A DNA stretch of 64,000 bases, taken from positions 576-64,575 of the forward strand of contig DASSSU010000029.1 of NCBI GenBank assembly GCA_035708305.1. Reading direction: 5' to 3'. The translations under genes and the position numbers were made by a program. Under the pieces are notes generated by a model, which did no database searches, was not told the origin of the DNA, and worked only from the letters and a program-made list of their open reading frames with translations. The stretch comes from Minisyncoccota bacterium. Its GTDB lineage: Bacteria > Patescibacteriota > Minisyncoccia > Phycocordibacterales > DASSSU01. Below, piece after piece: positions 3,898 to 63,920 of the stretch (the first letter of the stretch is position 1; each line of letters begins with the position of its first letter).

Positions 3898-4711
3898 AAA
3901 TGGACACATTCTTCTTGCAAGGAAGAATTAAAACGATCGATCCATTCTGCATTTGTAGAGTGAGAGACATGGTTCAGTCTCAAAAAGAGCCGGGCATTCG
4001 GGAGAGACCGAAAACCAGACGGAACAAAAGAAAGAGAAACTTTGAAAGGCTATTCACATTCAATTTTCAAAATATGATTAACAAAAACCGCTTCGGCGGT
4101 TTTTGTTTTGGTGCAATTTCCTTTAAATGTTATAATGCCACCGGGTTTTCTTCAATGGATATTTTGAGAAGGATATTTGAAAGTGAACGGTGGTCATCTT
4201 GCTTATGGAGTTTCGATTTCGTTCGTGATTGGCACGATGCTCATGCTCATTCTTCTTGGTCGGTAGAAATCTTTTGGAGGGGAAAATGTTCCAGCGATTT
4301 TTTCGCTCTCAGTTTTTCCGTTCGTGTGTTCGGAATCCTGTTGAAATGATCACGTCAATTTTGCTGTGGTTGGCAGTGGTTTTTGTCGTTTATTTTTACC
4401 ACCATTGGTAAAAAATGGCCGCGAGATGTTTTCTCGCGGCCTTTCGTTTGACCTTTACTGGTGTTCTGGCCTTCTTTTGGAAGAATGTTTTCTCGATTTT
4501 TTTCCTCGAGGGTCTTGTGAGGGATTCCTTTTCTCTTTTTCTTTTTCCCGTTTATCACGATGTCTCTGAGACATGCATGGAGCTCCTAAAATGAAAAGTT
4601 CGCACTCTCTCACTGAGAGGCTCTTCTTTTGAGAGAACCCTGAGGAATTCTAATGAAAATCAGGTTAAAATACAAGTGAGAGCCCTCAGTGATGGCATTA
4701 TGAAGAAAAAC

Positions 4712-4739
4712 TTGACGGAATTTTTCTTTTCTATATAAT
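4712..4739 (+). promoter_or_regulatory. Near-consensus promoter inside the 16S-23S spacer (TTGACG, 16 nt, TATAAT)
   Basis: Read directly from sequence, about 240 nt upstream of the 23S 5' end; it is followed by a gatctttg boxA-like motif and a hairpin-T9 at 4814-4840. Confidence 0.45.
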
Positions 4740-4977
4740 GCTAAATGTTCTGAATATGAAAAAGAAAGAAAGCTTTCCAAGGTGATACAGTCCACGCAGG
4801 TGGATCTTTGTGTATCGCCTCAGGCGATTTTTTTTTAGAAAACTGCCCGAACGGATCGAACGTTGAAAACTGAATTCTGCCACGGCAAAAATTACCTTTC
4901 GGGGTCTTTTCATTTGCCGGAGGCAGGCAGGTAAAAAATATTGTAAGAAAATTTTGTGGTTTTTTGACTTCCTAATG

Positions 4978-12111: not shown

Positions 12112-13002
12112 ATGGAAACATCAAGAAAAATGAGGGTGATTACGCACAGCGGGCCTTTTCATACGGACGATGTATTTGCTGTCGCCTCGCTTGACCTGTT
12201 GCTTCAGGGGGATTATGAGTTAGTCCGAACTCGTGATCCGGAAGTGATCAAAACTGGAGATTTTGTTTTGGATGTCGGCGGGGTGTACGATCCGGAAAAA
12301 AATCTTTTTGATCACCATCAGGAAGGCGGCGCCGGAGAGCGGGATGGGATCCCGTACTCTTCACTTGGTTTAGTGTGGAAAAAATACGGGGCGGAAATTT
12401 GCCGTTCTCCAGAGGTAGCAAGAGAAATAGAAGACAAGCTTGTGTTGGCAACTGATGCGACGGATTGCGGGGTGGACATCATTCCCAAAAACGACCTCGG
12501 GGTGCACGTTCCACATATGTACGATGTGATCAAATCTTTCCGCCCTTCATGGAAAGAAGAGAAAAGTTTCGATGAAGGTTTTCAGGAAGCGCTTGCTTTT
12601 GCTAAGGGGTATCTTACGCGGAGTATTTTCTTGGCTCATACACTTTTGGAATCAAAAGAGAAAGTTTTGAGAGCGTATGAACAAGCTTCGGATAAACGGA
12701 TCGTGGTTTTTGAAAAATTTTACCCAAGCTTGGATGCACTCGAGAATTTTCCAGAAGTACTATATGTGGTGTATCCGTATTCTGGGAACCAGCATTGGGT
12801 TGCCCGGGCGTTTCGTAGCGAACGAGACAGTTTCAGGAATCGCAAAGATTTTCCAAAAGCATGGGCAGGAAAGACGAACGAAGAGCTTGCAAAAATTTCC
12901 GGTGTTTCAGACGCGATGTTTTGCCACAATGGTGTTTGGATCTGCTCGGCACGATCGAAGGAGGGGGCAATAGCACTGGCTACCCTCGCCGCTGACGCGT
13001 AA
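12112..13002 (+). CDS. MYG1/UPF0160 family metal-dependent hydrolase
   Basis: Conserved THSGPFHTDDVFA and DHHQ motifs. Confidence 0.75.
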   Translation: METSRKMRVITHSGPFHTDDVFAVASLDLLLQGDYELVRTRDPEVIKTGDFVLDVGGVYDPEKNLFDHHQEGGAGERDGIPYSSLGLVWKKYGAEICRSPEVAREIEDKLVLATDATDCGVDIIPKNDLGVHVPHMYDVIKSFRPSWKEEKSFDEGFQEALAFAKGYLTRSIFLAHTLLESKEKVLRAYEQASDKRIVVFEKFYPSLDALENFPEVLYVVYPYSGNQHWVARAFRSERDSFRNRKDFPKAWAGKTNEELAKISGVSDAMFCHNGVWICSARSKEGAIALATLAADA

Positions 13003-13116
13003 AAACGTTCATTTCTGGCACATTTCATCTTTTATTTTTGAATTCATCTGCCTGAGGCAGACTCACTTCGCAATTCCAAAAATAAACGCGAACTGCACTC
13101 AGAAATGAACGTTTTT
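13001..13116 (+). repeat. Family-A nested palindromic element (17-bp perfect outer inverted repeat, with an inner tctgcctgaggcaga hairpin core) starting in the stop codon of the MYG1 gene
   Basis: Outer arms aaaaacgttcatttctg and cagaaatgaacgttttt. A homologous empty copy lies at 46272-46341 on the minus strand. The 24-nt core ttcatctgcctgaggcagactcac is repeated at 29869-29892. Confidence 0.7.
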
Positions 13117-13267
13117 ATTTTTCAATACACTGGATGGGTTTTTTGGGAAAAACGTATTTTTACAAAAGGCACTGTCCCAAGGATGCTCGTCTGGTCTTGT
13201 GTCTTTTGTGAAGAAGTTTCTGGGAGGATATGGCTCTTTTTTGTAAATTGAGATAAGATATTTTCAA

Positions 13268-22798: not shown

Positions 22799-22826
22799 AA
22801 TGAGAAGCTTTTCTTTTCATGTTTGA

Positions 22827-22896
22827 GAAAGCCTTCGGAGTCATTCTTTTCTCGTGAAGTCCACAAACTTCGAAAAGAATGACTCCGAAGGCTTTC
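22827..22896 (+). repeat. Family-B palindromic element copy 1 (25-bp perfect inverted repeat around the conserved loop cgtgaagtccacaaacttcg)
   Basis: Arms gaaagccttcggagtcattcttttc and gaaaagaatgactccgaaggctttc, lying between the peptidase stop and tsaC. Confidence 0.7.
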
Positions 22897-22925
22897 TTGG
22901 ATAAAACGCTGATAAAAATAAAAAC

Positions 22926-23502: not shown

Positions 23503-23570
23503 AAAATCTCTCCGGTTGCCCTTTTTTCGTGAAGCCCACAAACTTCAAAAAGGACAACCAGAGAGATTTT
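23503..23570 (+). repeat. Family-B palindromic element copy 2 (imperfect ~24-bp inverted repeat around cgtgaagcccacaaacttca)
   Basis: Arms aaaatctctccggttgccctttttt and aaaaaggacaaccagagagatttt, with G-U-compatible mismatches; it starts 8 nt after the tsaC stop. Confidence 0.65.
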
Positions 23571-26516: not shown

Positions 26517-26890
26517 GACGGATGGGTTTTGAGAAAGTTACAAAGAAGAAATCGAGTTATCCACAAGCCAACGGAAAAATGCTTATCCTTCGGGAGATTT
26601 TTTCTGTTTTGGATGGAGCGGGAAGATGCGGTAAAATGTCAGTACAAAGCTTCGAAATTTTTCTTAAACTTTGTACCAACATTATGCCACATGAAAGCAT
26701 TCCTTTTTGGAAGGTGTGCACTTTTTCTGTCGCTTGTTTTCGTTATCATGTCAGAGTGTTGGGGATTTTTTAAAAAAGTTTTGCATCAATTTTGTTTCTT
26801 GGAGCGGAAAGAAATTGATAGAGGAAGCTTACCCGAAAAAGAACCAAAATGCCACTTTGGCTCCAATTTAAGAGTTTAGCGTAAAGCACC

Positions 26891-29815
26891 ATGAACGAAA
26901 TTTCAAATATCAAAAAAAGAGACGGAAGTACGGTTCCTTTTGATCCTCAAAAAATTTTTTCCGCGGTGAAAAAAGCCTTTTCTGGGGAAAATGTCAGTAT
27001 TTCATCGGCGGATCTCCACAAGATTACTGATACCGCTGTAGAGGAACTGAAAAAGCGGACGGAGAAGAATGAACCGGTAAGTGTAGAAAACGTTCAAGAC
27101 GTGGTGGAACAAACGCTCATGGAAGGAGGATATTTCAAAGTGGCAAAAGCGTATATTCTGTATCGCTACGAGCACAAAAAGGAGCGGGAAAAAGAAGTGG
27201 CGGAAAAAATTGAAGAAGAAACCTTGACCGTGACGAAGAGAAACGGCAAAAGGGAAATTTTTTCCATTGACAAGCTCCGCAATACACTCTTTTTCCACGT
27301 GAAGGGGTATGAAAACGTTATCGATGTGGACCGCGTGGTCGGACAATGCCGCAGTGAGGTGTATGACGGAATTCAGACAAAAGATGTCACGCGAGCTATT
27401 GTCATGGCGCTTCGTTCGATGATTGAGATCGATCCGGCGTATTCAAAGATTGCAGCACGGGTGCTCTCCAGTATCATTTTGAAGGAAGTTGCTGGTACCG
27501 ATGTGTTTGATCGTGGCAACATTGATCGCGAATACCGGGAAGTTTTTGTAAAAAACATCCATCGCGGGGTGGAAATGGGACGTTTGGATCGTCGTTTGCT
27601 CGAGTTTGACCTTCGTGCGATCAGCCAGGAGTTGGTGATCGGACGGGATGATCTTTTCGAATATCTCGGACTCCAGACACTCTACGACCGCTACTTTGTG
27701 CGTGATGACGACACCCGGCAGGTGCTTGAAACGGCGCAGATGTTTTGGATGCGCGTTGCCATGGGAACCGCGCTTTTGGAGAAGCCGGAGGAGCGCTTGC
27801 GGTGGACAAAAGAGTTTTATGAGATCATGTCGCTTTTGCACTACACGCCGTCGACCCCAACACTCTTCCACGCGGGAACACAGCAGCCGCAGCTTTCATC
27901 TTGCTACCTGAACACCGTGCCGGACTCACTTGACGCGATTTTCAAATCCTATGCCGACAACGCACAGCTTTCGAAGTGGTCCGGCGGTTTGGGCACAGAC
28001 TGGACCCCGCTTCGCGCAACCGGGGCGTTCATCAAGGGAACCGGCGTGGAGAGTCAGGGAGTTATTCCGTTTTTGAAGATTGCGAACGACGTGACGGTGG
28101 CGATCAACCGAAGTGGAAGGCGGCGTGGCGCGGCAGCAGTGTACTTGGAGGTATGGCATTACGATATCTTTGACTTTATCGAACTTCGCAAGAATACCGG
28201 TGATGAACGGCGCCGGACGCACGACATGGATACGGCTACCTGGATTCCGGATTTGTTCATGAAGCGAGTACGCGAAAAGAAAGACTGGACACTTTTCTCG
28301 CCGGACGAAACGCCAGAACTGCACAACATCTACGGCCGGGCTTTTGAAGAAAAATATGCAGAGTACGAGCGAAAGGCCGATCGCGGAGAAATGAAAGTTT
28401 GGAAGCGCATTCCTGCGGAAGATCTTTGGAAGAAAATGCTTGCCATGCTCTTTGAAACCGGCCACCCGTGGATGACCTGGAAAGATCCTTCCAACGTACG
28501 CTCTCCTCAGGATCATGTCGGCGTCGTGCACAACTCAAATCTCTGCACCGAGATCACACTCAACACTTCCGAGAATGAAACCGCTGTCTGCAACCTCGGT
28601 TCGCTCAACTTTGCAAAGTTTGTGGTAAACGGGGTTTTTGACAAAAACCTGGTGGGAAGTGTGGTGATGACCGCGATGCGTATGCTCGACAATGTGATCG
28701 ATATCAATTTCTATCCGACCGAAGATGCCAAGCGTTCCAACATGCAGCATCGTCCAGTGGGGCTTGGGATTCGCGGTTTTCAGGATGCGCTCTATCTTTT
28801 GGGAATTAATTTTGATTCCGAGAAATGCATTCAGTTTGCGGACGAAAGTATGGAAGTGGTGTCGTATTACGCGATTTTGGCTTCTTCTGGACTTGCCCGC
28901 GAGCGCGGTGCGTACAAAACCTTCAAGGGTTCCAAGTGGGACCGAAATATTTTCCCGCAGGACACGCTTGATTTGCTGGAAAAAGAACGTGGAGAAGTTA
29001 TTCCGGTTCCGCGAACGGGACGGCTGGACTGGGCGCCGGTACGCGAACACGTGCGCATGTATGGCATGAGAAATTCCAACTGTCTTGCGGTAGCACCAAC
29101 CGCAACGACTGCCAATATTGTGGGCTGTGTTCCGACCATTGAGCCGATTTACAAAAACATTTATGTGAAGTCCAACCAGGCGGGAGATTTCGTGGTGGTC
29201 AACTCTTATTTAGTGGAAGAGCTGAAGATGCGCCGCTTGTGGAACGAAAACATGCTTGCCAAGCTCAAGTACCATGACGGAAGCATTCAGGAGATCGAAG
29301 AAATCCCGAAAGACATCAAGGAAAAATACAAGGAAATCTTTGAGATTGATCCAAGCTGGCTGATCCGCAGTGCCGCTTCCCGTGGAAAGTGGATTGACCA
29401 AAGCCAATCGCTGAACATTTATTTCCGCGGTACATCCGGCAAGGAGCTTTCTCAGGTGTATTTCCTTGCCTGGGAAATGGGACTCAAGACTACGTATTAT
29501 CTCCGTACCCTCGGTGCTTCACAAGTGGAAAAGTCCACGGTGGACACGGGAAAGTTTGGGTCAACCCACCAGCGCAAAACTTTTTCTTCAAACGCCATCC
29601 CGTCTTCCTCCACAGAAATGGTAGAGAGGGTGATGAACGTGGAGTCAGTGGAAGTCAAGCCTGAGCCGGTAAAAACCACAGAAGGGCATCCGAGTCCATT
29701 CCCAAAAGAAGCTGTTTCTGTGTCCTATCCGGTGTCGGTTGGTGCAGCAGCTCAGCCGAAGTATAATCTGATACGGATTGGGGATGATACAGACTGCGAG
29801 GCCTGCCAAGCATAG
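26891..29815 (+). CDS. nrdA: Class Ia ribonucleoside-diphosphate reductase alpha subunit, with two N-terminal ATP-cone domains and a ~100-aa C-terminal extension ending in CEAC
   Basis: ATP-cone signatures appear twice (KRDGSTVPF, KRNGKREIF); the catalytic block is NLCTEI; nrdB is adjacent. Confidence 0.9.
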   Translation: MNEISNIKKRDGSTVPFDPQKIFSAVKKAFSGENVSISSADLHKITDTAVEELKKRTEKNEPVSVENVQDVVEQTLMEGGYFKVAKAYILYRYEHKKEREKEVAEKIEEETLTVTKRNGKREIFSIDKLRNTLFFHVKGYENVIDVDRVVGQCRSEVYDGIQTKDVTRAIVMALRSMIEIDPAYSKIAARVLSSIILKEVAGTDVFDRGNIDREYREVFVKNIHRGVEMGRLDRRLLEFDLRAISQELVIGRDDLFEYLGLQTLYDRYFVRDDDTRQVLETAQMFWMRVAMGTALLEKPEERLRWTKEFYEIMSLLHYTPSTPTLFHAGTQQPQLSSCYLNTVPDSLDAIFKSYADNAQLSKWSGGLGTDWTPLRATGAFIKGTGVESQGVIPFLKIANDVTVAINRSGRRRGAAAVYLEVWHYDIFDFIELRKNTGDERRRTHDMDTATWIPDLFMKRVREKKDWTLFSPDETPELHNIYGRAFEEKYAEYERKADRGEMKVWKRIPAEDLWKKMLAMLFETGHPWMTWKDPSNVRSPQDHVGVVHNSNLCTEITLNTSENETAVCNLGSLNFAKFVVNGVFDKNLVGSVVMTAMRMLDNVIDINFYPTEDAKRSNMQHRPVGLGIRGFQDALYLLGINFDSEKCIQFADESMEVVSYYAILASSGLARERGAYKTFKGSKWDRNIFPQDTLDLLEKERGEVIPVPRTGRLDWAPVREHVRMYGMRNSNCLAVAPTATTANIVGCVPTIEPIYKNIYVKSNQAGDFVVVNSYLVEELKMRRLWNENMLAKLKYHDGSIQEIEEIPKDIKEKYKEIFEIDPSWLIRSAASRGKWIDQSQSLNIYFRGTSGKELSQVYFLAWEMGLKTTYYLRTLGASQVEKSTVDTGKFGSTHQRKTFSSNAIPSSSTEMVERVMNVESVEVKPEPVKTTEGHPSPFPKEAVSVSYPVSVGAAAQPKYNLIRIGDDTDCEACQA

Positions 29816-29823
29816 CCTTAAAA

Positions 29824-29934
29824 CTTCCAGCTTTGGCGAATTTCTTTGTCAGAACGTGAATTTTCCTGTTCATCTGCCTGAGGCAGACTCACAGCCAAAT
29901 TCACGTTCTTCCTCAAACTTCATCCAAATCTGAA
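29824..29934 (+). repeat. Family-C framed palindromic element downstream of nrdA (conserved frame, with a 12-bp inverted-repeat insert carrying the Family-A core)
   Basis: Frame cttccagctttggcgaatttctttgt ... cttcatccaaatctgaaa. The insert gaacgtgaattt ... ttcatctgcctgaggcagactcac ... aaattcacgttc shares its core with the element at 13043-13066. Confidence 0.7.
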
Positions 29935-30003
29935 AGTTTTATTTTGCAAGATTCTGAAAGTAGTTGCATACACAATAAAAATTATTCATTCACACTTACA
30001 TCC

Positions 30004-31038
30004 ATGCCTATTAAACAAACAAACGAGCAAGTAGATATTAACAAGCGAAAGATCATCAACGGGGAAGACGCCGATGTGATGCAGCTTCACCCGATCAAGC
30101 ATAAGTTTGCTTGGGAGGCGTACAATACCGGCAATGCGAACCACTGGCTTCCGACGGAGATCGGCATGCAAAAAGACGTAGAGCAGTGGAGATCGCGCGA
30201 CGTACTTTCCGACGACGAACGTCAAGCATTTGAAACGGTCCTCGGCTTTTTCACCACGGCGGACTCGATTGCGGCAAATAACGTGGTTTTGGCGCTCTAC
30301 AAGCACATCACTTCACCGGAGTGCCGCATGTTTCTTTTGCGGCAGGGCTACGAAGAGGCAAACCACACGCACTCGTACCAGTACATCGTGGAGTCGCTCG
30401 GCATGGATGAAGGAAAAATTTTCAACATGTACCGCGAGGTGGAGGCGATCTACAACAAAGACAACCTTGTCCTCTCACTCAATGAAGGAATCTTTGATCC
30501 GAACTTCAAAACGGGAACATTTGAAAATGACCAGAAATTCTTGGAAAACCTTTGTGTTTTCTCGCTTATTCTCGAAGGAATTTTCTTCTACAGTTCGTTT
30601 GCCGTGATGTTTGGTTTTCAGCGGCAAAACAAGCTGGTGGGCGCTGCGGAGCAGATTCAGTACATCATGCGCGATGAATCCCAGCACCTGAACTTTGGTA
30701 TCAACATGATCAACACAATCAAAGAAGAGCAGCCGGAACTTTGGACGCCGGAATTCCAGCAAAAAATCATCGACCTGATCCGCCGCGGTGTGGTACTTGA
30801 GTACACGTTTGCACAGGAAGTTTTCCCGAAAGGAATTTTTGGCATGAACGCGGAAGGGTTCAAGCAGTACATTGAGTACATTGCAGATCGCCGATTGGAG
30901 CGTGTGGGCTTGCCGAAGCAGTACAATGTGACCAATCCGTTCCCGTGGATGTCGGAGGCGATTGACTTGTCGAAGGAAAAGAACTTCTTTGAGACGAGAG
31001 TGACCGAATATAAAGTCGGCGGCGCGTTGGAGTGGTAA
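30004..31038 (+). CDS. nrdB: Class Ia ribonucleotide reductase beta subunit (diiron/tyrosyl radical)
   Basis: Ferritin-like EANHTHSY and RDESQHLNF iron ligand motifs. Confidence 0.85.
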   Translation: MPIKQTNEQVDINKRKIINGEDADVMQLHPIKHKFAWEAYNTGNANHWLPTEIGMQKDVEQWRSRDVLSDDERQAFETVLGFFTTADSIAANNVVLALYKHITSPECRMFLLRQGYEEANHTHSYQYIVESLGMDEGKIFNMYREVEAIYNKDNLVLSLNEGIFDPNFKTGTFENDQKFLENLCVFSLILEGIFFYSSFAVMFGFQRQNKLVGAAEQIQYIMRDESQHLNFGINMINTIKEEQPELWTPEFQQKIIDLIRRGVVLEYTFAQEVFPKGIFGMNAEGFKQYIEYIADRRLERVGLPKQYNVTNPFPWMSEAIDLSKEKNFFETRVTEYKVGGALEW

Positions 31039-31041
31039 AAG

Positions 31042-31156
31042 CTTCCAGATTTGGCGAATATCTTTGTTGCGAGGCAAAGTGCTTGCTCACCTTACTTATC
31101 CGTAAGGCTCGCGGCGACACTTTGCTTCGCGCCTCGATCTTCATCCAAATCTGAAA
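31042..31156 (+). repeat. Family-C framed palindromic element downstream of nrdB (same frame as the nrdA copy, with an unrelated nested-hairpin insert)
   Basis: Frame cttccagatttggcgaatatctttgt ... tcttcatccaaatctgaaa. The insert has gcgaggcaaagtg/cactttgcttcgc and ccttac/gtaagg stems. Confidence 0.7.
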
Positions 31157-31302
31157 CCTTTTACTTTTGCAAAAATCTGGTTATAAATAAAAAACTCTAG
31201 GATTAGAGTTTTTTATTTTAGCGGGGAATTCCGAAAAAACCCTTTATTTTCAAGCAAAAACAGGGAAGAGAAGTTATCCACAGGTTTTCTTGGGGAAAAT
31301 GT

Positions 31303-31330
31303 TTGACAAGAAAATTAGAAAGCGTATACT
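31303..31330 (+). promoter_or_regulatory. Candidate promoter (TTGACA, 16 nt, TATACT) for the polysaccharide gene cluster
   Basis: Consensus-like hexamers; the ~165-nt leader contains a C8T9 homopolymer tract. Confidence 0.45.
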
Positions 31331-31499
31331 AATGGCAGTTCCATTCACTTGGATATCCCGTTCTTTTTTCCACCCCCACCACCACTCTAACCCCCCCCTT
31401 TTTTTTCTTTCCCCTTCAACATCATTTTTACATGGTGTTTTTTTGTGCTTGATTTTTGGATTGAGAGAGACCAGGCTCTATTGCGTGTTTTGGTAGCTC

Positions 31500-34830: not shown

Positions 34831-34886
34831 GGAAAATAGCTCCATGTCCTTTTCGAAGTTTGTGGGCTTCACGAGAGCTATTTTCC
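34831..34886 (-). repeat. Family-B palindromic element copy 3 (reverse orientation; conserved core cgtgaagcccacaaacttcgaaaaggaca)
   Basis: On the plus strand it reads ggaaaatagctc...cgaagtttgtgggcttcacg...gagctattttcc; the 12-bp outer inverted repeat differs from those of copies 1 and 2. Confidence 0.65.
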
Positions 34887-46049: not shown

Positions 46050-46087
46050 CCACAAGAAAAACCCGTTGAAGCGGGTTTTTCTTGTGG
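46050..46087. terminator. Perfect 16-bp palindromic hairpin (ccacaagaaaaacccg / cgggtttttcttgtgg), a bidirectional terminator
   Basis: Read directly from sequence. Confidence 0.55.
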
Positions 46088-46271
46088 AATTTTAACGAGA
46101 CTACCATCCGGACCAGTCCATATTCTTCCCAAATCTTGAAAGGAATTTTGTTTACGAAAAATCCTGTTTTCTTTCAATCTAGCGCTCCAAGGCCGCTCGG
46201 CCGGTCTTACTGTCTTGAAGGAAAACAGGATTTCCCGCTTACGAACAAACTACTTCCAGTCTCTTGCAAAG

Positions 46272-46341
46272 AAAAAACACCCATTTCTGAGTGCAGTTTT
46301 CGCCTAAGAACGACGAAATGTGCCAGAAATGGGCGTTTTTT
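46272..46341 (-). repeat. Family-A element, the short 'empty' form, starting in the stop codon of rpmB
   Basis: Minus-strand sequence aaaaaacgcccatttctggcacatttcgtc...gcgaaaactgcactcagaaatgggtgtttttt; it aligns with both arms of the 13001-13116 copy, with compensatory stem changes. Confidence 0.7.
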
Positions 46342-46579
46342 AGATGAGGTTGGCTTTTTTGAGCGTTTTGTACGCTCCGTTCTTTTCCAAGGTCTTGAGA
46401 CCACTGGTGGAAAGAGACACCCGCACGCTCTTTTGAAGCTCAGGAACATACACCTTCTTCGTGATCATGTTTGGGCTTCGGCGGACTTTGCCAACCGGGT
46501 TGAACTTTGTGGCACGGGTGCGGTTGGAATACGCGCCTCCGACCTGAGTTCTTTTCTGGGTGATAGGACATTTTTTCAT
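46340..46579 (-). CDS. rpmB: 50S ribosomal protein L28
   Basis: MKKCPITQKRTQVG...NRTRATKFNPV signature. Confidence 0.8.
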   Translation of the reverse strand: MKKCPITQKRTQVGGAYSNRTRATKFNPVGKVRRSPNMITKKVYVPELQKSVRVSLSTSGLKTLEKNGAYKTLKKANLI

Positions 46580-46625
46580 AATTTCAAATTATACACATTC
46601 TTGCGGAGATTTCAACATACGGTGT

Positions 46626-47066
46626 ATGATATTGGGCATTATGGCAATTATGCATTCTTTAGAGTCTCAACCAAAGGAAAGAATATTTCAGGTAAAGCGG
46701 TCCCGTGCTGGGCTCGGGCTTTTTGCTTCCAAGGCAATCGCCAAAGGAACGTTCATCGTGGAATATGTCGGTGAAATTATTTCTAGCCAAGAAGCCGATC
46801 GACGCGGCGGAAAATATTTATTTCAGCTGAACTCACGAAAGACAGTCGATGGGAAAAACCGTTCCAACGTTGCCCGTTACATCAATCATTCTTGTCGTCC
46901 AAATGCGGAAGTGGAAATCAAACGCGGGCACATCCTTATCTTTGCAAAAAAGAAGATTCGAGAAGGTGAAGAAATTGCATATGACTACGGAAAAGAATAT
47001 TTTCAGGAATATATTGAACCGTATGGATGCCGATGTGAGTTTTGTCTAAAGAAAAGAGATTCTTAG
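46626..47066 (+). CDS. SET-domain protein (putative protein lysine methyltransferase)
   Basis: NHSCRPN motif, an ELxYDY-like EIAYDYG, and a C-terminal Cys cluster (post-SET-like). Confidence 0.65.
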   Translation: MILGIMAIMHSLESQPKERIFQVKRSRAGLGLFASKAIAKGTFIVEYVGEIISSQEADRRGGKYLFQLNSRKTVDGKNRSNVARYINHSCRPNAEVEIKRGHILIFAKKKIREGEEIAYDYGKEYFQEYIEPYGCRCEFCLKKRDS

Positions 47067-61128: not shown

Positions 61129-61503
61129 GTGAGTGCTGTTTTAACATTGAATAATCTGAGAATCTTGTCCTCGTGTTGTTCTGGAAGACGCGTGGAAAGC
61201 AGGATTCTTACCCGAATATCAATATTTTATCGGATTTTTCTGAAGTTTTCCTGAAATTTTGTAAGAATTCCGTGTTTTTTCCGTCTCATGCGGTAGCGCA
61301 AAAGGGCGATCTTAATGCAGGAAAAACAGTCTGCCGTAAGATTACTCATATTTTGCCGGAGGTTTTTCAAAAAATCTCCCGAGTTCTTTCACAGTTTTTA
61401 GTTTCTAATCTTGTTCAGCAGCGAGAGGAATCTCTAAATGGCTTACCCATTTACTCGCGATATCAATGTTCTTGATCGCGGCTCAAATTCTTTGCGCATT
61501 GCC

Positions 61504-62622
61504 ATGGTCGCTCCTTTGGTAGAGAGCGTGCCGCCGAAGTATTATGGCGGAACGGAGCGAGTCATGGATTGGCTCATAAAAGCGCTTCTTCAAATGGGGC
61601 ATCGTATCACGCTTTTTGCGAGCGGTGATTCTGTTACTGGCGCAGAGCTTCATGCTTGTGTACCGAAAAATCTTCGCGAGATGTGGAAAGAAATTCCGGA
61701 TGATCAGAAACCGGAAGATTACGTCGCGTGGCAAAAGCGCTACACCAAGAAAATGCTTGACGATGTGTACCTCCTCGCCATGAATGGCGAGTTTGATGTT
61801 GTTCATTTAAATGTGGACGACCCATATGCGTTTGAGCTTTTCTCAGACACAAATCTTCCGTGCGCGGTTGTTATGACCATGCATGGTCGGCAGGATTATA
61901 AGTGGCTCCACGCTGCATACAGGAAGCATCCGCTTCCATTGGTATCAATTTCCAATAATCAGCGTGAGTTAATGGTTCCAAACGCCAACTGGGCAGGAAC
62001 CGTATACCATGGTTTGCCGGAGGATTTGTATCAAGTAGAAAATGCGGAGCAAGGTGAGTACTTGCTTTTCATTGGACGCACCAGTCCCGAAAAAGGACTG
62101 AAACAGGCGATAGAGATTGCCGTAAAGGCAAACATGGAGTTGAAGATTGTTGCGAAGATTGATCCAAGTGAGGAAGATTACTTTTGGAAGGAAATCCAAC
62201 CGCTAATTTTCGAAAACCATTCCCTGGTTAAATTCTGTGGTGAGAAGGGAGATGCTGAAAAGCAGGAACTTCTCTCTGGCGCACGGGCGCTTCTTTTCCC
62301 GATTTGTTGGCCCGAACCGTTTGGCCTTGTGATGATCGAAGCCATGGCTACCGGCCGGCCGGTGATTGCTTACCGGCATGGTTCTGTGCCGGAGGTTCTC
62401 CAACATGGAGAAACCGGATTTATCATCAAGGATGACGCGGAAGCTGCGGCTTTGTCGGTTGAGATGGCAAAGCACCTCAAACCCCAAAACATCCGTCGGA
62501 TTTTTAAAGATCGATTTTCCAATGTTCGTATGGCGGAAGGGTACGTGGAGATTTACAAAAAATTAATCTCCGAGAACCAAGTCGCAAGAAAGCCAAAAGC
62601 TTTCACCAAACTGGCAGGATAG
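61504..62622 (+). CDS. Glycosyltransferase family 4, tandem paralog 1
   Basis: MVAPLVESVPP..YGGTERV N-terminus and EPFGLVMIEAMATGRPV C-terminal GT-B motif; an in-frame upstream ATG at 61438 is less likely. Confidence 0.75.
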   Translation: MVAPLVESVPPKYYGGTERVMDWLIKALLQMGHRITLFASGDSVTGAELHACVPKNLREMWKEIPDDQKPEDYVAWQKRYTKKMLDDVYLLAMNGEFDVVHLNVDDPYAFELFSDTNLPCAVVMTMHGRQDYKWLHAAYRKHPLPLVSISNNQRELMVPNANWAGTVYHGLPEDLYQVENAEQGEYLLFIGRTSPEKGLKQAIEIAVKANMELKIVAKIDPSEEDYFWKEIQPLIFENHSLVKFCGEKGDAEKQELLSGARALLFPICWPEPFGLVMIEAMATGRPVIAYRHGSVPEVLQHGETGFIIKDDAEAAALSVEMAKHLKPQNIRRIFKDRFSNVRMAEGYVEIYKKLISENQVARKPKAFTKLAG

Positions 62623-62783: not shown

Positions 62784-63920
62784 ATGGTTGCTCCTTTGGT
62801 AGAGAGCGTACCGCCGCAGCTTTATGGCGGAACTGAGCGGTTTGTGGCCTGGCTGGTAAATGCTCTTGTTGCCATGGGGCACGATGTGACTCTCTTTGCG
62901 AGCGGAGATTCACAAACTTCCGCCCGTCTTCACAAGTGTTCGCCGAAAAACCTTCGTCGTATGTACGAAGATCTCAAGGAAAAGCCTGCTGACTATATCG
63001 CATGGCAGAAACAAGCGACTCATGCGATGCTTCAGGAAGTCTTTAAGCACGTCATGAACGGCGAGTTTGATATTGTTCACTTAAATGTGGATGATCCCGA
63101 GGCTTTCAGACTCTTTTCTTCAAAAGAACTTCCATGTCCGGTGGTGATGACCATGCACGGACGCTTGGATCTTGAAGGATTGCGGGCAGCGTATCAGGAA
63201 CATCCGCTTCCGTTGGTTTCCATTTCGAACGATCAGCGGACGCATTTTAAAATGTCCAACGCCAACTGGGCGGGCACGGTATACCACGGCCTACCGGAAG
63301 ATCTCTATCAGCTGGAAAACGAAACACTGGGGGACTACTTGCTTTTCATCGGAAGAGTGAGCAGGGAAAAAGGATTGGAGAGTGCGATTCGGATTGCTGG
63401 TGAAGCGCACATTCCTCTGAAAATCATTGCCAAGATCGACCCGACGGATCGGGAGTATTATCGGGAGAAAATACATCCTCTCATTTTCGGCAATTCGAAT
63501 ATCGAGTTTGTTGGTGAGAAAAACGACCAAGAAAAACAGAAGTACTTGAACAGAGCACGTGCACTTATCTTTCCGATCAACTGGCCGGAACCGTTTGGCC
63601 TGGTGATGATCGAAGCCATGGCTACCGGCCGGCCGGTAGTCGCCTTTGGGTGTGGTTCTGTTCCAGAAGTATTGAAGCACGGTGAGACTGGCTTTGTGGT
63701 AGAAAAAGAAAATTACGAAGACAAAATCCGTGAGGCGATTCACTTTGTAAATGCCTGCAAAAATCTTTCTCCTCAAAAGATCCGCAAAATTTTTCTCAGA
63801 GATTTCACGGCAAAAAAAATGGCGGAAGGATACGTGGAGATTTATCAAAAACTTTGGCAAGAACGCAGAGCAGGACAAAAAACGCAGAACTTGTGGATGA
63901 AAAAAGGAAAAATTGTATAA
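62784..63920 (+). CDS. Glycosyltransferase family 4, tandem paralog 2
   Basis: It has the same architecture as paralog 1, and stretches of near-identical nucleotide sequence (for example ccgtttggcctggtgatgatcgaagccatggctaccggccggccgg). Confidence 0.75.
   Translation: MVAPLVESVPPQLYGGTERFVAWLVNALVAMGHDVTLFASGDSQTSARLHKCSPKNLRRMYEDLKEKPADYIAWQKQATHAMLQEVFKHVMNGEFDIVHLNVDDPEAFRLFSSKELPCPVVMTMHGRLDLEGLRAAYQEHPLPLVSISNDQRTHFKMSNANWAGTVYHGLPEDLYQLENETLGDYLLFIGRVSREKGLESAIRIAGEAHIPLKIIAKIDPTDREYYREKIHPLIFGNSNIEFVGEKNDQEKQKYLNRARALIFPINWPEPFGLVMIEAMATGRPVVAFGCGSVPEVLKHGETGFVVEKENYEDKIREAIHFVNACKNLSPQKIRKIFLRDFTAKKMAEGYVEIYQKLWQERRAGQKTQNLWMKKGKIV

Follow-up and report, generated by a model that had tools for sequence, protein, structure and literature searches.

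Structured frames downstream of nrdA and nrdB as probable copies of a dispersed hairpin-forming repeat of candidate phyla radiation genomes

In the 64,000-nt stretch of DNA analysed here (contig DASSSU010000029.1 of a Minisyncoccota bacterium, hereafter the window), the two genes for ribonucleotide reductase (RNR), nrdA (26891..29815, plus strand; ATP-cone, large subunit) and nrdB (30004..31038, plus strand; small subunit, PF00268), are each followed by nearly the same sequence frame, the two halves of which enclose different hairpins. This raises the question whether the frame is a structured 3' untranslated region (3'UTR) 'socket' of the nrd operon that accepts unrelated hairpins, as the preliminary description of this DNA proposed, or belongs to an element of another kind. 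We consider it probable that the two sequences, named R1 (after nrdA) and R2 (after nrdB), belong to an interspersed, hairpin-forming repeat dispersed in genomes of the candidate phyla radiation (CPR). It resembles miniature inverted-repeat transposable elements (MITEs) and the BOX, ERIC and SPRITE elements and would be co-transcribed as a 3'UTR or intercistronic hairpin. Copies of this repeat multiply within genomes and exchange modules, bear hallmarks of transposition in at least one lineage (target-site duplications and an empty orthologous site), and persist almost only in sense orientation, directly after stop codons.

Repeat copies in the window and related genomes

The window itself is of CPR/Patescibacteria origin: the nearest NrdB proteins in GTDB, from metagenome-assembled genomes (MAGs) of Kaiserbacteria, Paceibacterota, Ryanbacteria and the 'Parcubacteria group', are 72-83% identical, and the best matches in a collection of 5.8 billion proteins are 85-89% identical. 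The frame shared by the two nrd genes was readily confirmed. Its left halves (29824-29849 and 31042-31067, plus strand) agree at 24 of 26 positions and its right halves (29918-29935 and 31139-31156, plus strand) at all 18; 100 shuffles gave an expectation of 0 for matches to the left half, and no third copy of the exact nrd frame is present within the window. Two details had to be corrected, as the variable base of the left half is C/A (M) and not R, and the two halves are separated by 68 and 71 nt and not by 65 nt. The complementarity of ccagatttgg and ccaaatctg described earlier is real but was drawn too short: the outer stem, termed P1, measures 18-20 bp and runs at both nrd genes from an A-tract (containing the TAA of nrdB, and 3 nt after the TAG of nrdA) to a T-tract.

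Taken with its outer stem, R1 occupies 29819..29941 of the plus strand in the nrdA-nrdB spacer, with P1 at 29819-29836/29924-29941, a distal arm at 29850-29917 and an apical hairpin P3, TCTGCC/GGCAGA, at 29873-29878/29882-29887. R2 occupies 31035..31164 of the plus strand directly 3' of nrdB, with P1 at 31035-31054/31145-31164 (the nrdB stop codon TAA, 31036-31038, lies inside it), the distal arm at 31068-31138 and P3, CCTTAC/GTAAGG, at 31090-31095/31102-31107. The predicted folds have energies of -44.4 kcal/mol for R1 and -52.1 kcal/mol for R2, each with z = -7.7. A tail of 15-20 nt of the form TTT(G/T)CAA.A..CTGG follows the stem; in R1 it reads TTTTGCAAGATTCTG (29942..29956, plus strand), which by alignment is common to all four copies in the window, and in R2 it reads TTTTGCAAAAATCTGG (31165..31180, plus strand). 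Within the R2 tail, AAATCTGG could, in place of P1, pair with CCAGATTT from the 5' arm of that stem. An independently assembled Logan contig of 1230 bp (L001, SRR25158513) matches positions 29863-31092 of the window with 0 mismatches, and since it reproduces the region, the nrd copies are not an assembly artefact. The contig itself ends inside the shared core of R1 and, at the other side, inside the R2 interior, about 25 nt past the left frame.

The third copy in the window (the 13000 copy; 13000..13117, plus strand) follows a MYG1-like gene (12112-13002, plus strand), the stop codon TAA of which is in P1. It has the frame variant GGCACATTTC...CGAACTGCACTC together with a 24-nt apical core (13043-13066) identical to that of R1; this is the 'Family-A core' that the preliminary description had recognized in the nrdA insert. 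The fourth copy (the 46272 copy; 46272..46341, minus strand) is a short form of 70 nt located after rpmB (46343-46579, minus strand). It carries the same frame variant as the 13000 copy and consists of P1, the junctions and the stem P2a closed by an 8-nt loop, without the distal arm.

Two covariance models were used for the recognition of copies. Model R1, built from eight copies, recovers all eight plus further copies and assigns 105.6, 109.3, 101.4 and 62.9 bits to R1, R2, the 13000 copy and the 46272 copy, respectively. Model R2 was built without R1, the 13000 copy and the 46272 copy, and recovers these three independently with 70, 44.4 and 40.1 bits (E from 2e-14 to 3e-7). Relatives were searched with the single-stranded part of the left frame, GGCRAATNTCTTYGT, which matched directly 3' of nrdA in a Kaiserbacteria MAG (L015), directly 3' of nrdB in L084, and at unrelated genes in L085, each match sitting within a hairpin of about 125 nt with a differing outer stem. 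In total, 15 non-redundant copies were obtained from seven CPR genomes: four in the window and at least 11 in six other genomes (three in L085, two each in L107, L083 and L015, and one each in L084 and L010), so that the frame is found in related genomes. L085 and L103 belong to genome GCA_900206355.1 and L107 to GCA_023264615.1. The copies are non-coding, 118-149 nt in length (70 nt in the short form) and 36-53% in GC content. L085 has its three copies within 21 kb, and the window its four within 64 kb.

Model R1 had no match in 784 kb of control DNA consisting of non-CPR nrdB loci and viral contigs. With Rfam 15 at gathering thresholds, only rRNA and tRNA were found in the window, and at E values up to 10 only chance matches to miRNA and snoRNA models were found over 29700-31400. 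R2 had no match by blastn in phage and plasmid collections. Thirteen motif matches in IMG/VR were discarded, all of them being inside coding sequences (CDS) and hairpin-free, with nothing found there by model R1; the sole match of an exact-frame search in JGI metagenomes, in a glycosyltransferase CDS (L082), was taken as chance because it has neither the right half nor the outer stem. The literature searched on CPR repeats or structured RNAs contained nothing relevant, and Rfam 15 holds no model either. The family appears to be undescribed, although its kind, interspersed palindromic repeats, is well known.

The distribution of the repeat is patchy. The closest NrdB relatives (L100-L102, L104-L106 and L108) have no copies, and in most close relatives, L083, L100-L102 and L104-L106 among them, the family is missing around nrd. 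In several relatives nrdA and nrdB are separated by 4-14 nt, which leaves no room for the element, and in others the spacer contains different palindromes.

Homology of the inserts and structure of the repeat

The two inserts had been described as unrelated, and this does not stand. Although R1 was not among the copies used to build model R2, this model aligns it in full and with high posterior probability through P3, including the apical hairpin and its flanks. In the MAFFT alignment of the two interiors, CTGCC/GGCAG lies opposite CTTAC/GTAAG, with the flanks TTCAT/CTCAC and ACTCA/GCTCG. Conservation is unbroken across the boundary of frame and insert, as seen in GGCGAATTTCTTTGTCAGAACGTG of R1 compared with GGCGCATTTCTTTGTCAAAACGTG of L107 (24 of 26 identical across this junction) and, on the 3' side, in CACGTTCTTCCTCAAACTTCATCC compared with CTCGTTTTTCCTCGAACTGCATCC; the R2 interior (GTTGC...CGCGCCTCGA) matches L084 and L085. 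Because the inserts align, and each has closer relatives in other genomes, R1 and R2 are placed in two old subfamilies of one element. As judged from sequence, the 'frame' is the basal module and the 'inserts' are the fast-evolving distal arm of the same element.

A natural short form without this arm is seen in the 46272 copy, and the suggestion that the frame might occur with or without an insert is thereby borne out. Long and short forms of the ERIC and Correia (CREE) elements differ by internal insertions or deletions. Comparison of the window copies gave a mosaic pattern: R1 and R2 have P1 and the junctions in common, with 84%/79% identity in the frame and about 53% in the apical region, R1 and the 13000 copy are 96% identical in the apical region (24 identical bases) and differ in their frames, and the 13000 and 46272 copies have their frame in common. 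Such a mosaic of frames and apical regions requires recombination or gene conversion between copies. It is the kernel of truth in the idea of a socket accepting inserts, for modules are shuffled among copies, but what they receive are not unrelated foreign hairpins.

The consensus structure consists, in order, of P1, a bulge, a helix of 3-4 bp with a C·A opposition, a UUUC/C loop, P2a (UUCG/CGAA), the variable stem P2b, an internal loop (..UCAY/..CUCG) and the flanked apical hairpin P3 of 5-6 bp; the 5' and 3' conserved junctions are termed J5 and J3. P1 is 15-20 bp in length and complementary in every copy, with a sequence that is conserved within subfamilies only and not family-wide. The C·A opposition in the junction helix is almost invariant (10 of 12 copies). 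Over the alignment, 87-92% of cells are paired and 23-27 pairs have changed on both sides; none of 500 shuffles reached the observed values, and slid registers dropped to 24-47% paired. The complementarity of P1 was partly used in choosing members, that of P3 and the junction helix was not. P3 covaries at all six of its pairs, and the pair 24-133, for example, is CG in six copies, AU in four and UA in one. The frame is therefore conserved and structured as had been claimed, recurring in related genomes with covarying stems, but it is not an nrd-specific socket.

The motifs are kept over large distances. At fourfold-degenerate sites of nrdB, the window and the other six genomes are 24-41% identical, that is, saturated, while the elements of the same genomes are 58-71% identical overall and far more so in J5, P3 and J3. 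P1 and P2b diverge in sequence yet remain paired. Because the junction and apical motifs are retained despite saturated synonymous sites, the stems only staying paired, these motifs appear to be read by something.

The two strands are not equivalent in folding. In 10 of 12 copies the reverse complement gives the more stable fold, with stronger z-scores too (for R1, -60.3 kcal/mol antisense versus -44.4 sense), and where the sense strand has C·A and A·C oppositions, the antisense strand has G·U pairs. Counting G·U against A·C gives only a modest advantage to the antisense strand (46 G·U versus 28), and the positions are not independent. The sense transcript would thus hold a deliberately imperfect hairpin, and the opposite orientation, giving a near-perfect duplex of about 55 bp, may be counter-selected.

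Position, mobility and competing explanations

Fourteen of the 15 copies are sense to the gene immediately upstream (p = 0.001). Five overlap the stop codon of that gene and nine start at most 7 nt away from it. The GC skew is positive over the whole window, and the 46272 copy on the minus strand has the opposite replication polarity and the same gene polarity as the others; because the skew is uniform while this copy is reversed with its gene, orientation tracks transcription and not replication. The host genes have no common theme, comprising nrdA, nrdB, the gene for the MYG1-like exonuclease, rpmB, atpE, a signal-peptidase gene and small open reading frames (ORFs).

Copies adjoin nrdA or nrdB in six of the seven genomes, and the nrdA-nrdB spacer looks like a permissive or preferred landing site. 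Other elements were observed in this spacer as well. At L085 9524-10000 (also in L086 and L103) it holds an ORF of 135 aa with the domain PF05635, the Avd-like 23S rRNA intervening-sequence protein, inside a long inverted repeat, a layout resembling an rRNA intervening sequence but in an mRNA spacer; L107, syntenic with L085, has the repeat element in place of this ORF. At L084 6508-6612 the spacer contains a different palindrome with the apex AGAAATTCG-TTTTA-CGAATTTCT. The 9-mer CGAATTTCT is also in the left frame of R1, which may be a remnant or a coincidence.

The evidence for mobility comes mainly from the L085/L107 lineage. With P1 counted in, the two L107 copies, L107a after an 84-aa ORF and L107b in the nrdA-nrdB spacer, share 97% identity. 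The termini in this lineage are TAGGAC...GTCCTA, and direct repeats of 5 bp flank four of the five copies, TTAGA and AAATA being perfect (5/5) and the two others matching at 4/5; the probability of this by chance is 6e-7 to 3e-5 under two null models. The site of L085b, at the signal-peptidase gene, is empty in the syntenic L107, where loss is possible as the species differ, and the site of L107b holds a different element in L085. The patchiness among relatives and the ends of the Logan contig within R1 and R2 likewise speak for mobility. Among the properties by which MITEs are recognized, the repeat is short, non-coding and multicopy, with terminal inverted repeats and orthologous presence/absence, and no cognate transposase was found among the ORFs and Pfam calls covered. 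The ends that a partner insertion sequence (IS) would have to match are TAGGACNTACGCA or CTTCCAGATTTGG.

Several observations weigh against a MITE-like, co-transcribed repeat. No target-site duplications were found at the four window copies, nor at those of L084, L015, L010 and L083. A Pfam scan of 39 window ORFs, from 64 kb of the host genome, detected no transposase; the Pfam calls for L083-L086 and L100-L108 likewise include no transposase domain, the unannotated L010 and L015 standing outside this check. The termini (P1) are the least conserved part of the element and the internal junctions the most conserved, contrary to classical MITEs. The strict sense orientation and deep conservation are explained no less well by a host-selected RNA element than by a selfish one. 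The genes nrdA and nrdB adjoin seven of the 15 copies where about 2.5 are expected (p ~0.004); as every locus was fetched through NrdB, this may be biased, and we treat the enrichment as a lead only. Finally, co-transcription of the copies and their effects on stability or termination are what we infer from sequence.

Comparison with known elements places the repeat among several families without identifying it with any. BOX elements of Streptococcus pneumoniae (boxA-boxB(n)-boxC; PMC3049150) also have paired conserved ends around an absent or variable module, are interspersed, shorter than 200 bp, hairpin-forming when transcribed, near genes, and clustered or nested with other repeats. They differ in having no sequence similarity to the present family, tandem boxB units instead of a single variable hairpin arm, a Firmicutes host instead of CPR, and an orientation bias of about 61%, far weaker than the one found here. 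SPRITE elements (PMC3049150) resemble the window copies in the AAAA/TTTT terminal inverted repeats, the duplex of about 18 bp followed by a U-rich tract, the location near CDS 3' ends and the absence of demonstrable target-site duplications; the A/T tracts are not family-wide here, being absent from L085, L107, L015 and L010, and the present family is more tightly folded, with its conserved motifs internal. ERIC/IRU and CREE (PMC3184786) are imperfect palindromes of about 104-157 bp that are transcribed together with their flanking genes and influence the processing or stability of mRNA, and some ERIC-type termini are TA; they occur in both orientations with conserved terminal repeats, in contrast to the variable termini and conserved junctions of the present family, in which no integration host factor (IHF) site or promoter is evident. 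REP/BIME with RAYT are likewise extragenic palindromes at gene 3' ends, where they stabilise the upstream mRNA, but the 20-40 nt GC-rich REP with its GTAG-type tetranucleotide and RAYT gene has no counterpart here (no Y1 transposase in the ORFs scanned). What sets the family apart from textbook MITEs is that its termini vary around a conserved interior, that it is found almost exclusively in sense orientation, and that it overlaps stop codons.

Because R1 is intra-operonic, R2 precedes an ordinary terminator and the U-tract is lacking in several genomes, the elements are probably carried within transcripts and are at most partial terminators. The copies would be co-transcribed with the upstream gene, sitting in the mRNA as 3'UTR or intercistronic hairpins, which could protect the 3' end of the upstream cistron, attenuate read-through or cause partial termination. 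Selection would disfavour the reverse orientation, whose more stable, near-perfect duplex would terminate transcription or attract RNase III more efficiently. A trans-acting protein, which may be a transposase or an RNA-binding protein, would recognise the element by its conserved internal motifs. Control of termination or of mRNA stability or turnover has been proposed as the role of stem-loops at gene 3' ends (PMC1590033), of ERIC elements (PMC3184786) and of SPRITE and BOX elements (PMC3049150), and co-transcription and mRNA effects are on record for ERIC (PMC3184786).

The competing explanation that survives best is a host-owned, non-mobile, cis-acting RNA module which marks mRNA 3' ends and is read by a host RNA-binding protein or RNase; we regard it as possible but unlikely. 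The terminating ribosome would melt the stop-burying P1, so that read-through or the stability of the transcript would be coupled to upstream translation. This explanation draws on the 14 sense copies, on the nine starting within 7 nt of a stop codon, on motifs conserved at saturated synonymous distance with compensatory changes in the stems, and on an orientation that tracks transcription rather than replication; variable termini with a conserved interior are also the opposite of a transposase-recognised inverted repeat, and a second, unrelated hairpin family in the window obeys the same positional logic. It has difficulty with the patchiness even among close relatives, several of which (L083, L100-L102 and L104-L106) have no copy at nrd, with the 97% identity of the L107 copies, and with the 5-bp flanking direct repeats and the empty orthologous site in the lineage of L107. 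Both the more stable antisense fold of 10 of 12 copies and the sole antisense copy, located inside an atp operon in the atpB-atpE spacer of L083, count against it.

Doubtful, and somewhat less likely still, is the reading that CPR bacteria maintain the family as a class of structured RNA of their own and not as junk, mobility being the route of this 3'-end module to new genes. The stop-burying stem would be opened by the terminating ribosome, and the conserved junction with its C·A opposition and the apical hairpin would be read by a dedicated protein, making read-through, processing or stability dependent on translation; at nrdAB the element would balance nrdA and nrdB output.

The nrd-operon-specific socket of the preliminary description, riboregulatory or terminator-associated, is very improbable and is largely refuted by the non-nrd copies. 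The nearly identical frames at both nrd genes, the adjoining of nrdA or nrdB in six of seven genomes (seven of 15 copies against about 2.5 expected) and the existence of a short form without the distal arm are what it would explain. However, eight of the 15 copies are at unrelated genes (MYG1-like, rpmB, atpE, signal-peptidase and small ORFs), the 'inserts' are homologous mutually and to copies in other genomes, the 4-14 nt spacer of many relatives leaves no room for it, and the enrichment is confounded by the retrieval of all loci with NrdB.

Equally remote is a site of single-stranded-DNA recombination or transposition (attC-like, or of the IS200/IS605 or REP type) with the folded bottom strand active. 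The resemblance to integron attC is considerable, with imperfect hairpins, conserved ends or base around a variable centre or terminal structure, a conserved mismatch and bulge (extrahelical or mismatched bases in attC), fixed orientation after ORFs with stop-codon overlap, and a more stable antisense strand (46 G·U versus 28). But no RYYYAAC/GTTRRRY boxes (the R''/R' core motifs) are conserved across copies, the termini (TAAAAC..., GTAAAAG..., TTAGGAC..., GAGATGC...) contain no conserved attC core site, the flanking genes are core housekeeping genes and not cassettes, no integrase or Y1 transposase is among the ORFs scanned, orientation does not track the replication strand, and 5-bp duplications are unexpected for Y1/HUH transposition. 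By eye, the NrdR-box and attC core motifs were absent, and the consensus features of hammerhead, twister, k-turn, boxA and T-loop did not fit. An antisense ORF (30860-31144) that starts in R2 was rejected as a small peptide of the element, its frame not being conserved and the copies differing by indels.

Plain intrinsic terminators alike by chance can hardly be the answer, for although A- and T-tracts bracket P1 in the window copies and in L084, the T-tract is absent in L085, L107, L015 and L010, R1 is internal to the nrdAB operon and is followed by no promoter, R2 precedes an ordinary terminator, and the motifs are conserved over 125 nt. A simple terminator scan did not call the repeat copies, and no promoter for nrdB was found inside or after R1. 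The frame is not the terminator of the nrd operon; an ordinary A-tract/hairpin/T-tract terminator (31185..31218, plus strand) is located 20 nt after R2, is probably the real end of the nrdAB operon and is followed by a strong promoter-like site at 31303-31330.

Other features of the window and meaning of the repeat

The second hairpin family mentioned above has copies at 22826-22897 (plus strand), 23503-23570 (plus strand) and 34832-34886 (minus strand). Their 20-nt loop, TCGTGAAGYCCACAAACTTC, is nearly invariant and their stems are wholly different (26 bp perfect, 24 bp and 12 bp); they lie in sense orientation 28-50 nt after the stops of the prolyl oligopeptidase, Sua5 and histidine kinase genes. 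The third copy contains an apparent piece of the stem of another copy (GAAAAGGAC), and no match to this family was found in any locus fetched.

Perfect DnaA boxes (TTATCCACA) are present in the window only at 26557-26565 and 31274-31282, bracketing nrdAB, where 0.27 would be expected by chance, and ATCCACA is also found upstream of nrdA in L085 and L107. The nrdAB operon of E. coli is regulated by DnaA via DnaA boxes in its promoter (PMC8203912). The 370-nt region upstream of nrdA includes an imperfect inverted repeat with 27-nt arms (26626-26692) that has no Rfam match.

Downstream of the rpmB copy are a hairpin with a 19-bp stem and a 37-nt loop (46159-46233) and a canonical bidirectional terminator (46050-46087), which together with the copy make three stacked hairpins after one small gene; a SET-domain (lysine methyltransferase-like) gene (46560-47063; Pfam E = 7e-27) adjoins rpmB. 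The 16S-23S spacer (3900-4974) is about 1.07 kb long, has no tRNA gene, and contains a terminator-like hairpin at 4078-4106 (AAAAACCGCTTCGGCGGTTTTT) and a longer inverted repeat at 4053-4181. At 61438-62622 and 62784-63920 lie neighbouring paralogues of about 390 aa; their DNA is 72-77% identical over aligned blocks, and they appear to be a tandem duplication.

Repeats of this sort in small, streamlined CPR genomes have no description that we could find in Rfam 15 or the literature searched. If the element is a MITE-like parasite only, it would be of use as a marker in CPR MAGs, where it would also cause assemblies to break; it would further be an example of module exchange and a warning against calling such hairpins gene-specific regulators. 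If a host protein reads the junctions, the repeat would offer a handle on mRNA 3'-end formation or protection in uncultured bacteria.

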